DNA from: Eledone cirrhosa
Lineage: Eukaryota
DNA length: 64,000 bases
Reading direction: 5' to 3'
NCBI GenBank assembly: GCA_964016885.1
Contig: OZ024752.1
Location: 1,054,001-1,118,000 of the forward strand
Below are positions 16,439 to 53,446 of the stretch, one piece after another. Under the pieces are notes generated by a model. That model was not told the origin of the DNA, did no database searches, and saw only the letters and a list, made by a program, of their open reading frames with translations. The position numbers were made by a program, and so were the translations under genes. Positions within the stretch are counted from its first letter, which is position 1, and the number at the start of each line of letters is the position of its first letter.

Positions 16439-17162
16439 AACGGAAAAAATGAAACGAAATTTCATTTCCCACTCATAGTACGGCTGTTACTTAAATATAA
16501 GTATGTACACGTACATACATATATGTATACAGACGTACAGTAGTATGTATATATATACATACATGCACACATATATATATATATACAAACACACCGAGCA
16601 TTATAATAAATGTTCGGTGAATCCATACGTACATATATATATGTGTGCATGTATATATATATATATATATATATATATATATATACATACTACTGTACGT
16701 CTGTATACATATATGTATGTACGTGTACATACTTATATTTAAGTAACAGCCGTACTAAGAATGGGAAATGAAATTTCGTTTCATTTTTTCCGTTCATCGT
16801 TTTCGGTGCACCCGGCCGATTAACCCACTCGATATGCAAATTGGGCTACTCAGCCGTTAATATGCATAAGGTAAGTATATACGTTCAACAATCTGGCAGG
16901 AAGGTATACGTTGCTGACGATAGCTAATAAGCTTGAAACTAGTACAGCGTTCCTTTGTCAGTGTTGAACAAACGAGCAACGATGGTTGCTAGACACTACG
17001 GCTTAATACGGGATGTTTGTTTACAAACACACCGAGCATTATAATAAATGTTCGGTGAATCCATACGTACATATATATATGTGTGCATGTATGTATATAT
17101 ATATATATATTCATACTACTGTACGTCTGTATACATATATGTATGTACGTGTACATACTTAT
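16439..17162 (+). mobile_element. HHR element with 5' inverted repeat and 438 bp-period direct repeat
   Basis: 16439-16550 is inverted at 16686-16794. 16585-16735 is repeated directly at 17023-17162. HHR at 16908. Confidence 0.8.
16893..16961 (+). ncRNA. Minimal type I hammerhead ribozyme with extended stem I
   Basis: ACGUUG-CUGACGA-U AGCU AAUA AGCU U-GAAA-CUAG-UA^-CAGCGU. Outer pairing CUGGCA-GGAA/UUCC-UGUCAG. Confidence 0.9.
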
Positions 17163-18603
17163 ATATATGTATATATACACACACACATATATACGTACAT
17201 ACACGTGCATACGCGAAAACGCACGCCATACATACATGTACATATATCTGTATATACACAGTACACAAACATGCATACGCACACCCACATACAAGCACAT
17301 AAACACACAGACACAAACGCACACACAGACACAAACTCACATATGCAATTAGATGTCAATTGCTCCAAAATCTTTTGGCACATTTCGAATATTCCAGAAC
17401 ACCCTTACATTACTACTTTCTCGATGTAGTTTGAAGTTAATAAAAAATCCGAAATAATTAATGATCATCTGCACTAAAGTGGAATGATTTGTTTTGGCAA
17501 GGACATCTAAACTTTCGGACAGAACCCTTCATCCGATACAGAGATGATATATGCCTTGGTAGTACTGATTAAAGAGATTCAAAGTGAGATAATATTTCAA
17601 AACAAATGTATGAACATCAATAATGTTAAGTGCAGAGGAACGGCTTTCACGTATATCACTCAAGCATTTCCCTTGCCTAATCATATTAATGATCACTGTA
17701 ATAAAGCTTTTATCTAATCTTAATATGTATCTTCCTCTTATATTTCGGGTGTTTGCAAGCAAAACATATTTTAAAAACATTGTCTGCATTGTTAGGTACG
17801 ACTAAGCTCATCTACCATAATGTTGGGCTGTGTGTTTAGAACTTCTGTACTTATTAAACTGTTAATGTTCTTGAGGCAGCATTGCAAACACTCAATATCT
17901 TTCTACGTATTTAAGGGGTGTTGGATATAAATATGAAACCTATTTTTATTCGTAAAACACACACACTTAAATTCGTTCTTCTGATATGTATATGGTGTGT
18001 GACGCAAACGGATGATTTCCAAGTTTCTAACATAATCCCCTTCGAATAGATGTCAGCTTTCTTGCCCGATTAAAACAAAGTTATATTTTGGAAGGTCATA
18101 TCTAAAGCATCAATGGGAGATTGTTCTATTCTACCGTCACCGGGGCCGCGGGGTAGCCAGCACAAGTCACCCCCCCCTCATTTGCTTATAATAGTGAGAC
18201 ACGGGGAGAGCGGGAGAAACGGAGGCAGCGACGTGGGAGTTTGGTTCCTTTGTGTTCTGACCTGGTGTATATCTATATGTTTGAAGGACACTCACTCATG
18301 TAAGTGAAGTGTCTCCCTCCCCACAACGATCATATAACAAACTTTCTATTGATAAAAGCTTCATACACACATCTGCTAACACACCACCACCATATTGACA
18401 AAGGGACAATGACAATTCATATTGTCACATGTAATAAAATTATTTCTCCGTTTACATTAAGTCAGTTACAAACTATTTACACTTATTTAAATAATTTAAT
18501 TGTTAAAATGTACTCATATTGATTGTACTCATGTTCACACAATGTTACATAATGTATCTTCGCTAGGTAATATAAAATGAAAGCTATGTTATAAAATATT
18601 ATG

Positions 18604-18711
18604 ATCCCGCCGAGGTTAACTTTGTCTTTCATCCTTACGGGGTCGATAAAATAAAGTACCACTAATATACTGGGATAATTGCTGGCCTTGTGCCAAAAGT
18701 AGAAACAATTA
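18604..18711 (+). mobile_element. Meta-domain SINE, 5'-truncated
   Basis: Central domain and tail match the other copies. Confidence 0.9.
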
Positions 18712-20073
18712 TAACACGATATATAAACAATTATACTTATATATATAACATACAGCAATATTGAATAAATAATATTTATTAGCATTTAAATAAATATATC
18801 ATCAAATTTTACACGAATATTTATATTGCATGTATCATCATTATAAACCACCAAGCAAGCAATAAGATCTTATAGCAGGTTATATATTATAGAAATTAGT
18901 ATGTTAGTCACGAACAGATGTTATAAACTAATGCACATGTCACTAACATCATACAATCACAATAAAATTCTGTGCTTCGAGCAAGAAGTACTTGACCACT
19001 ATATTAGAGGAATATTGTCTTTAAGTTTTAAAACTTGTAAGTGGATAAATATTGACTTTTATTTCTTGTCAGCATAACCTGTGGTTATCTGTAACTCTCT
19101 CGTAGTTATATATCTTAATTGGTATTTTAAACTCACTCAAGTTTTAAAAAATGAATAATGAAATTCGCTGGAGATTAGTTTGATACAGTTTAATTCACAA
19201 GTTCTCACCTGCGATCATCCCCGATAGCTATTTATATTGATAGAAACTATTATTCAGTCCTACAATTTAAATTAATTTATATTGAAATTGCTAGTGTACA
19301 TTAAAAATAACTCTCATCAAATGAAAATACACACGTTAAGTATTTCAATCAAGCAAGCACTTAACAGGAAATTATTGTATTACGTGTACTAAAGAGAAAT
19401 GTCCATCAGCGAATTCAAAAAGAAACTTCACATGCACTAATGTCTTCCATACATTTATTGCTGTAATTCCATATACAAATAAGAAGATTGAATTAATGAT
19501 ATATAAGAAATAAGTGCTGTAGACATCCTCATTACGGTAGAATGTTTTAGAAGATGATATTCTATGATTCATTCAATCAAATCTCGAGATGGAATGCACT
19601 ATAATGTATTTAATATATAACAATATGGTCAATATTCGAATCTGGTGTAGACTTAATTATGCCTAAGCCTACAACAAGATAGGCTACTGCCCATCTTCTG
19701 TCATAAGATGCTTCTTTGTTGTAATGTATCTCTTAAAGTACAACGCTAAACTCAATGATAATGGTTTTTCAAATGTGACCCCTTCTAGAATGTATACATA
19801 CATTTAGATTTTTTTGATAGATGAATTAAAAATTAAAAAAATATATATTAAATCGTGTGGTACTATTTTGCCGGAGAGCTGATGAGAGTGAAGATGTGTG
19901 TATACTTGTCTCGTACATCGCCTTTCTTTATTTCCTTCTTCCAGTCACTTCTATCCGCGATCACATTTCTCCTTGTTCTCCACCCGTTTCAATCTTTTCT
20001 GTTTTATCTGCTTGTCTTTCTGTTGACCACTAGCCGCTGGTCTCTGTCCTTTGAGGCACTTTTGCCCATCGCT

Positions 20074-20265
20074 GTCTGAAAAGTTCATAGGCTTAGCAGG
20101 ATATTCTCATGGAATGACCAAAGAAGGTTAATTTTTCAACATATTCCTTGGAACGAAACAAGACCGTTATTAATTAGAAGTGAAATTAATGCATGCAAGA
20201 TTTGAACACCTCTAGCTCGAATCCTTCATTGTCAGCCTATGAAACTATCAACTAACCCTCGTATA
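20074..20265. mobile_element. Mariner-type MITE relic
   Basis: Imperfect TIRs CTGAAAAGTTCATAGGCT / AGCCTATGAAACTATCA...CCCTCGTA with a TA terminus. Confidence 0.5.
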
Positions 20266-52380: not shown

Positions 52381-52643
52381 TAAGGTAAAGTCTGTCTCGA
52401 GCCCGAAGGCGCGTCAGGCCGGTGCCTATCTCGGTTTTCTTGGCATGAAGCGATTGAGAGTCCAAGACTACCCACACCTGGACTGGACGCCAGTCCATCA
52501 CACGGCGAATCCCCAGCTATTTCTGGTATTAATTTTAGCTGAGTATACTGGAGCAACGCGAAATGAAGTGTTTTGCCCAAGAACACAAAACACAACCCAG
52601 TACAGGAATTGAAGCCACGACATCGCGATCGTAAGTCCAACAG
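52381..52643 (-). mobile_element. tRNA-derived SINE, second family (V-domain-like centre)
   Basis: Minus strand: B box, GTTCTTGGGCAAAACAC, then GATGGACTGGCGTCCAGTCCAGG, which resembles the V-SINE core (recalled). Ends in a CTTTAC tail. Confidence 0.75.
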
Positions 52644-52644
52644 C

Positions 52645-52825
52645 TTGGCAGTATCGGTAGAGGGTCGGAGACCATGTTTCCAGCATAGTTACGTCCCTTT
52701 ACGGTCTGAGTTCAAATCCTGTCGAGGTTAATTTTGCCTTTCAACCTTACGCGGTCGATAAAATAAAGTACCAGTAATGTACTGGTTAATTGCTGGCCTT
52801 GTGCCAAAAGTAGAAACAATTATTA
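52645..52825 (+). mobile_element. Meta-domain SINE
   Basis: Near full-length match. Confidence 0.92.
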
Positions 52826-53136
52826 TACAGAAAATATATTCCCGATACACACAAAATATTTATCCCTATCACTAATATTCTTTACACTCTGCAGTTAACT
52901 TCATTGTTAATTCCGAAGGCTATGCTCTGTATTTTTATAACTTGTACACACAATATTCTAGTATTTGTATTTCTTCATCATTTTAGTTGGCTTGTATAAA
53001 TCCCTGTTGGTCTTCTGAAAAATGAACTTTTAACTTAAACGATAACCTACCATAATCTTAACTGGGTGATAAACAATTACAGTATTGTGAATTATCTTTA
53101 TGAAATATATATATATATATATATACTATATATATA

Positions 53137-53446
53137 GAGTTATAAACTCAAACAGTCTTTTACAATTAATTAGCTCAAAGAAAGAAGTATTTCTGAGCCG
53201 TGAAATACAAGTTAATATAAATTAATATATATGATAAACACTAATACAATCATATAAGTGTTTGTATTGCAAATGACCAAGTTAGCTAGATTGAAAAATA
53301 CTAATTAGATTAATACAGTTTGCCTGTCTCGATTTAAAATAATAAATTAGTATTTTTCAATCTAGCTAACTTGGTCATTTGCAATACAAACACTTATATG
53401 ATTGTATTAGTGTTTATCATATATATTAATTTATATTAACTTGTAT
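53137..53446. mobile_element. Perfect ~100 bp inverted repeat plus unique tail between TA tracts (no HHR seen)
   Basis: 53205-53306 is mirrored at 53345-53446 with a ~38 bp spacer. Confidence 0.75.

Follow-up and report, generated by a model that had tools for sequence, protein, structure and literature searches.

Here we describe eleven palindromic elements lying between TA microsatellites in a 64,000-nt stretch of Eledone cirrhosa DNA (contig OZ024752.1 of assembly GCA_964016885.1, positions 1,054,001 to 1,118,000; the window), part of a 3.0-Gb genome rich in such microsatellites, and consider how they may have arisen as Penelope-like element (PLE) insertions. A preliminary description of the window had reported eleven elements in which one arm of an inverted repeat touches a TA run and the other arm is separated from the opposite run by a unique tail. 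With TA runs masked before the repeat search, an unmasked search being swamped by them, all eleven could be located: each has one inverted arm at a TA run and a tail of 54-118 bp at the other, with arms that span 20-360 bp and are 77-100% identical. The tail lies on the right in window orientation in 4/11 and on the left in 7/11. The description fits less well at element 37080, where the tail-less arm ends at 37926, 64 bp short of a pure TA run, in TA/CA-rich sequence.

Three of the elements are short plus-strand copies of a family that we term A. Element 24625 (24625..24792) is old, with 50-bp arms of 77% identity and a 67-bp tail (24726-24792). Element 27468 (27468..27591) has 20-bp arms (95%) that meet near a predicted GUC hammerhead cleavage site, and an 80-bp tail (27512-27591). 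Element 29094 (29094..29283) corresponds to the 3' end of an intact 3531-bp PLE: its arms (29094-29146 and 29151-29203; 53 bp, 98%) carry the 3' half of a hammerhead, and are followed by a predicted inner start site at 29203/29204, a hairpin at 29212-29235 and an outer start site at 29283, bounding a tail of 80 bp. An older, decayed family A-like palindrome lies immediately to its left, at 28909-29080.

Among the longer elements, 26957 (26957..27375, plus strand; family F1) has arms at 26957-27114 and 27127-27284 (158 bp, 99%), hammerhead cores at 27192 (+) and 27049 (-), and a 91-bp tail (27285-27375) bearing an ACTC...GAGT hairpin. Family F7 is represented by two minus-strand copies, neither with a confirmed hammerhead: element 27613 (27613..28370; tail 27613-27703, 91 bp; arms 27704-27965 and 28115-28370, ~260 bp, 84%) and element 53137 (53137..53443; tail 53137-53207, 71 bp; arms 53208-53320 and 53331-53443, 113 bp, 93%). 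The remaining minus-strand elements include 28384 (28384..28850; family F5), with a 60-bp tail (28384-28443), arms at 28444-28534 and 28760-28850 (91 bp, 97%) and a hammerhead core in the spacer at 28618 (-), and 35236 (35236..35719; family F13), with a 118-bp tail (35236-35353), 23-bp arms (100%) and a core at 35481 (-). Element 33172 (33172..34599, minus strand) has a 110-bp tail (33172-33281), arms of ~355 bp (33282-33642 and 34250-34599; 96%), microsatellites in its centre and hammerhead-like cores with weak stems at 33434 (-) and 34450 (+). Element 37080 (37063..37926, minus strand) comprises a 106-bp tail (37063-37168), arms of ~353 bp (37169-37520 and 37573-37926; 96%) and cores at 37255 (-) and 37840 (+) of the variant CCGAUGA, which reads CUGAUGA in the loci L139 and L143. 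Elements stack in adjacent TA runs, six consecutive ones occupying 26957-29283.

Element 16439 (16439..17165, no single strand) differs in composition. It had been described as having a long body instead of a tail, a claim that we revise: a 54-bp tail is present on the short inverted piece, and the body is a ~445-bp tandem unit. The left, minus-strand piece (16439-16547) consists of the tail (~16439-16492) and a 55-bp arm (100% identity) and ends at the outer site, and the right, plus-strand tandem (16586-17165) ends at the inner site and contains a minimal type-I hammerhead core at 16914 (+). The same pair of end sites recurs on opposite strands at L034, L048, L087, L105, L116 and L174, and the unit forms a tandem array of 7 units at L074. 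A tandem repeat that is non-coding and has a single type-I hammerhead in each unit fits a non-LTR retrozyme.

In all, hammerhead cores occur in 6/11 elements, in one of them with weak stems; the three family A copies have just the 3' half, and in two elements none is confirmed. An Rfam scan of the window gave 0 matches at the gathering score, and single-sequence folding of its hammerheads gave z values of -1.38 to +1.05, no significant support.

Arm-and-tail elements across the genome

To place the window in context, we used a non-uniform sample of 159 scattered 10-kb genome stretches (1.59 Mb) containing 1053 TA-bounded segments, and scored a segment when one arm lay no more than 5 bp from a TA run while the opposite end carried unique sequence of 30-130 bp. 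This pattern was found in 100/1053 segments, compared with 1/1053 in shuffled controls and 14/1053 in natural stretches without TA anchoring, corresponding to ~63 scars per Mb in this non-uniform sample. Only 15 segments were symmetric, and in the window one arm is internal in 11/11 elements rather than both being terminal; the earlier view that these are not terminal-inverted-repeat transposons is borne out. A small family of fully symmetric, tail-less palindromes between TA runs does exist (L099:9563-9690, L102:3227-3386, L104:2933-3081), and its members are possibly true miniature inverted-repeat transposable elements (MITEs). Tail length across family representatives is 33-121 bp. A type-I hammerhead descriptor called 31/108 elements (9/26 families; 77 without a call), and all 31 point toward the tail, none inward, so the proposed placement of the tail 3' of the hammerhead extends well beyond the window and polarity is not random.

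Both kinds of junction with TA are also present in raw reads. In Illumina data of a separate study, (TA)n is found at the arm end (at 28440, 2162 and 2285 reads; at 29081, 2953 and 2576 reads) and at the tail end (at 29299, 1998 and 2101 reads); read ends at 28394, another tail end, are loose and AT-rich with low agreement. A 378-nt read contig covers the whole centre of element 27613 without differences in X1 and X3; these reads may come from the very sample that was assembled. The arm-and-tail feature is confirmed as real, and not an assembly artefact.

Parent elements and family identities

Tracing family A upstream led to a 3531-bp unit found in tandem arrays and head-to-head pairs, and the best 41 genome matches to the family A query are 100% alike over the query. 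The unit encodes a 717-aa open reading frame (ORF; L222:1857-4007) with a reverse transcriptase (RT) followed at the C terminus by a GIY-YIG endonuclease, bearing the motifs YRDD and VIY...YIG. A local Pfam scan of this ORF matched no family; at E<=1e-20 the protein has 2049 relatives, and PF26215 or PF01541 is annotated in some of them. The RW[K/R] and DKT motifs, CxCX5C linker, CxxC and CxH are present and CCHH is absent, and every visible end of twelve long family A insertions abuts (TA)n, which by motifs and target would place the parent in the Hydra clade. One array (G000:C1:437198052-437214409; L235, L222, L223) holds ~4.6 near-identical 3531-bp units with the intact ORF, is closed by a 281-bp inverted piece bearing the tail, and is likely a recently active source locus.

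Family A thus shows the architecture of endonuclease-bearing (EN+) PLEs: a tandem or partial-tandem pseudo-long terminal repeat (pLTR), an adjoining inverted copy, a one-sided tail and a type-I hammerhead in the pLTR. With family A as the 3' end of an intact PLE, and a shape matching the published PLE form, the attribution of the insertions to PLEs in the preliminary description is sustained. The putative hammerhead (L222 unit 3346-3440) is a variant with the core YUGARAA and, in some copies, a candidate U3-A8 pair; its long stem II overlaps a TATA-like box. We also looked upstream of family A for a core of the canonical CUGANGA type and set it aside: of 46 matches, the 20 that were read are chimeras or junction products, the true core being the variant.

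The full RT-endonuclease parent was read for family A, and the endonuclease end only for families 26957, F10 and F11. Family 26957 lies ~1.1 kb downstream of a related GIY-YIG endonuclease gene of the CxCX5C-linker type in 5/20 fetched loci (L239, L241, L246, L253, L254), and F10 and F11, which are not represented in the window, also follow GIY-YIG endonuclease genes with no TA run between. The assignment of elements 27613/53137, 28384, 33172, 35236 and 37080 is based solely on their shape, hammerhead or hairpin. ORFs from other PLE clades, which we take to be Poseidon-like, occur at L059:722-2251 and L240, and L059 has the arm-and-tail shape with a 38-bp tail.

No PLE ORF was found in the window itself, where the long ORFs resemble non-LTR RT fragments. 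Fragments of AP-endonuclease/RT non-LTR elements, presumably L1/Tx1-like, occupy 41855-46000, 50154-51946 and 63117-63983 and include an inverted pair (42963-44272 and 50269-51423). A dispersed ~190-bp family resembling short interspersed nuclear elements (SINEs) is present on both strands (2626-2807, 8680-8860, 18604-18713, 26481-26671, 30364-30483, 48407-48601, 51774-51953, 52645-52826 and 62486-62699), and a short, AT-rich direct duplication (29300-29380 and 29815-29890) lies to the left of the TA run at 29888.

Paired end sites and a shared hairpin

An insertion is built from two sense-strand pieces that meet at their 5'-truncated ends, so that the 3' end of each faces TA. In every family the ends fall at two fixed positions, an inner and an outer site, with the tail between them. 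The inverted arm had been placed at a 5' (TA)n, which has to be corrected: both TA junctions are 3' ends of sense pieces lying head to head. Opposite-strand neighbours of the family A unit within 10 kb are arranged in this way in 11/11 pairs. Ten of these were fetched and, together with L118 and the C1 array, make up the twelve long, young insertions; eleven end at unit positions 3451 (inner) and 3531 (outer), and the remaining one, L226, ends at a TA site ~17 nt into the tail and at the outer site. In a random sample, 95/100 same-family two-ended segments pair one inner with one outer site (35/36 for family A alone).

Six random-sample segments join two families. Head-to-head insertions of this kind carry no inverted repeat, and are exemplified by L037:7264 and L066:8471 from the random sample and by L197, L206 and L208 from a pattern search. 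The two clean random-sample cases are outer+outer, so that the pairing rule seems to lapse when the RNAs differ. Same-direction or nested joins of different PLE families also occur (L066:9560-10000, L149:6940-7190, L198), as template jumps predict.

The two arms need not be equal. The tail-less arm is the longer in 5/12 long insertions, the excess ranging from 12 nt to over 3 whole units, and these insertions are nearly undiverged, with arms 98-100% like the unit; among random family A pairs it is longer by at least 15 nt in 5/35. Where the central join could be resolved, 6/11 show microhomology of 1-6 nt and 5/11 contain inserts of 4-33 nt, several copied from nearby sequence. The arms carry the same subfamily variant in 27/37 copies (42 found, 5 dropped), against 15% when permuted, which suggests the same template or source.

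In several families both end sites are marked by a common signal. The tail starts with TA or AT in 83/108 elements against an 18% background, so a TA primer could pair there. In the uncut element both sites precede UA, followed in several families by the same hairpin, an RCTC-stem with a 2-nt bulge and GAGY. An RCTC...GAGY stem within 3-16 nt was found in 10/27 family representatives, compared with a mean of 0.27 and a maximum of 2 in 300 shuffles; the outer pair is concordant in 10/10 (ACTC/GAGT in 7, GCTC/GAGC in 3), and the stacked 3-bp upper stem with the bulge is paired at 38/42 positions (14 scorable of 16 motifs), against a shuffled 16.3 that reached this value in 0/2000. A second hairpin lies just past the outer site in read-through copies of families A, F5 and F7 and is not copied into insertions. 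In the metagenome contig L256 (protein 37% identical) a hammerhead is followed by both hairpins at a spacing of 61 nt, and the related contigs L257 and L258 end just before the second (3/8 loci, one family). The minimum-energy fold of a single sequence did not recover the predicted inner hairpin. The families had been thought unrelated, and their tails indeed do not align as DNA, but the shared, covarying hairpin in 10/27 representatives and the position of A, 26957, F10 and F11 directly downstream of related GIY-YIG endonuclease genes speak against this.

Proposed two-ended priming and its alternatives

The preliminary idea that one integration mechanism is common to these elements stands, and on this evidence we think it likely that the scars form by two-ended target-primed reverse transcription of one RNA or source, completed by microhomology joining. 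The RT/GIY-YIG protein, probably as a dimer, would bind two hairpins and cut both strands of (TA)n; each 3' end of the cut (TA)n would pair with the UA ahead of one hairpin and prime complementary DNA (cDNA). The two cDNAs would then grow toward each other and be sealed by polymerase-theta-like end joining, of which microhomology and templated inserts are described as hallmarks (PMC12426944). The tail would be the RNA between the two start sites, and the inverted repeat the stretch that is copied twice. The model is consistent with what has been observed in vitro for a lizard PLE protein that cuts and extends both strands, initiates internally at two tail-bounding sites and is a predicted dimer (PMC11167929). 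A more specific proposal, to which we would give a little less than an even chance, is that in Hydra-clade PLEs a doubled, covarying hairpin, conserved in distant hosts, sets the two RT sites of one dimer on one RNA, so that both cut ends are primed simultaneously, one per site, and the cDNAs are joined head to head without ordinary second-strand synthesis. If true, this scheme would account together for the tail of PLEs, their inverted pLTR and, through run-off at the 5' end of the messenger RNA, the abundance of short palindromes with hammerheads.

Several observations weigh against these readings. The pairing count is not fully independent, because the site library came from arm-and-tail elements, and 173 random-sample segments have one recognised end only. 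The arms of short family A pairs stop no more than 15 nt apart in 29/35, as a fold-back too would predict. Five of the six random-sample two-family segments were inspected and only 2 were clean. Arm identity may reflect gene conversion, and unequal arms can also come from later deletion within a palindrome. For the hairpin, the 2-nt bulge was chosen after trying 0-3, the strict pattern was not found in 17/27 representatives, including 16439, 28384 (inner site), 33172, 35236 and 37080, and the families that bear it may share ancestry.

The preliminary description invoked a fold-back or template switch; a template-switch or end-joining step at the insertion centre is retained in the two-ended model, but fold-back itself we judge unlikely. 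Here the cDNA primed at the tail end would fold, copy itself as far as the inner UA site and join the other side of the TA run, with central deletions to follow. Shared subfamily variants and near-symmetric short copies sit comfortably with such copying, as does the containment of the tail-less arm within the tail-bearing arm in 7/12 long insertions, and junction palindromes have been read as self-priming (PMC3846280). Yet nearly undiverged insertions in which the tail-less arm is the longer would need later deletions, fold-back does not explain why copying should halt at a set, hairpin-marked position, insertions of the two-family and inner+inner kinds offer no strand to fold from, and long joins would rely on only 1-6 nt of microhomology across loops of up to 2.5 kb.

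Two-ended priming need not involve a single RNA, and could be carried out by two separate ribonucleoproteins or RNAs of the same source locus at one break, with no RNA holding both sites. Two-family insertions do exist, and one RNA copied twice over the same region would call for strand displacement or for a template that is tandem or circular. Independent choice of sites, however, should yield about half mixed pairs rather than 95/100, and the apparent lapse of the rule in clean two-family cases, where the RNAs differ, further lowers this to a quite improbable option. Least credible of all, to a degree that we would call very remote, are artefacts of assembly or of chimeric reads, or separate insertions of two elements into a single TA run: although perfect palindromes beside microsatellites are artefact-prone, arms differ by up to 23%, ends are family-fixed, the arms of most copies are not separated by a TA run, another study's raw reads show junctions of both types and a read contig spans one centre.

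How the short copies acquire their 5' truncation is a separate matter. Of 95 family A arms, tail-bearing and tail-less taken together, 68 end within unit 3383-3404, with a mode at 3394 that lies 29 nt past the TATA-like box TATTTAAA, and family F3 arms stop ~30 nt past TATAAATA. At L066 the end of another family is joined in the same direction at the family A stop point. In Drosophila, Penelope has an internal promoter and a start site upstream of the ORF (PMC2377424). The short copies could represent run-off at the 5' end of the element messenger RNA, which we regard as about evenly balanced, a structural stop being the alternative. Counting against run-off, arms of family 26957 accumulate at -161, where a clear TATA box is lacking. 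The stop positions of F5, F10, F2 and F4 are ambiguous, with several peaks or a reference contaminated by CA repeats.

LINE-1 twin priming offers a likeness to these scars, in that both target strands prime cDNA and an inversion results; it inverts without duplicating, from a variable internal site, whereas the scars have a fixed site and a region copied twice. Closer at hand is the canonical EN+ PLE insertion, described as a partial tandem with an adjoining inverted, 5'-truncated copy and a 30-40 bp tail at either end (PMC8557442; PMC3846280), a shape that is also reported in PMC4209133. The head-to-head inverted piece, one-sided tail, tandem units, pLTR hammerhead and microsatellite target are the same here (Craig et al. 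2021; Arkhipova et al. 2013), but the tails are longer (33-121 bp), an inner site at one end is matched by an outer site at the other, and a hairpin is shared. As described in PMC8557442 and PMC3846280, the shape is ascribed to endonuclease resolution or self-priming and the question is left open. The Hydra clade, as outlined in PMC8557442, shares with family A the RW[K/R], DKT and CxCX5C-linker motifs, CxxC and CxH around conserved E and N, the lack of CCHH and the (TA)n target; its members are described as generally <3 kb, unlike the 3531-bp parent, which also has a clear tandem and inverted pLTR structure and the variant hammerhead core YUGARAA.

PAc, a Poseidon element of Anolis carolinensis studied in vitro (Frangieh et al. 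2024, PMC11167929), likewise has two internal tail-bounding RT starts, which for Eledone we infer from sequence; both target strands are cut and extended, the target is AT-rich and RNA downstream of the start sites is needed. PAc belongs to a different clade, and an AC-rich stem loop is named rather than a doubled RCTC/GAGY hairpin. In the main text of that study the inverted repeat is not traced to the pair of start sites ('inverted' appears once, for a blocking group), and the account given there reports no strand difference in start site. Element 16439 resembles non-LTR retrozymes (PMC7229834; bioRxiv 10.64898/2026.07.22.740005) in its ~445-bp non-coding tandem unit with one type-I hammerhead each, but differs in its PLE-type paired ends and head-to-head inversion. 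PLEs have been counted in an octopus genome (PMC13282606), with hammerheads and palindromes not mentioned in the portion of that paper available. A literature search that covered few subscription papers met no account of two-ended priming at paired sites, of the RCTC/GAGY hairpin in PLEs or of the run-off reading, although figure-only supplements of PMC11167929 may show a similar model. The insertion shape itself is thus already published; the pairing rule, the doubled hairpin and the run-off reading are candidates for what is new.

How PLEs come by their inverted repeats and one-sided tails is described in PMC8557442 as unresolved, and PLEs are the sister group of telomerase RTs. The Eledone genome holds an intact, nearly undiverged autonomous PLE together with very many scars, and as these scars mark out a pair of start sites, together with a candidate hairpin acting in cis and a candidate start of transcription, the putative mechanism is directly testable. 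For genome annotation, the abundant short palindromes are to be regarded as truncated ends of PLEs and retrozymes, rather than as MITEs or independent SINE families.

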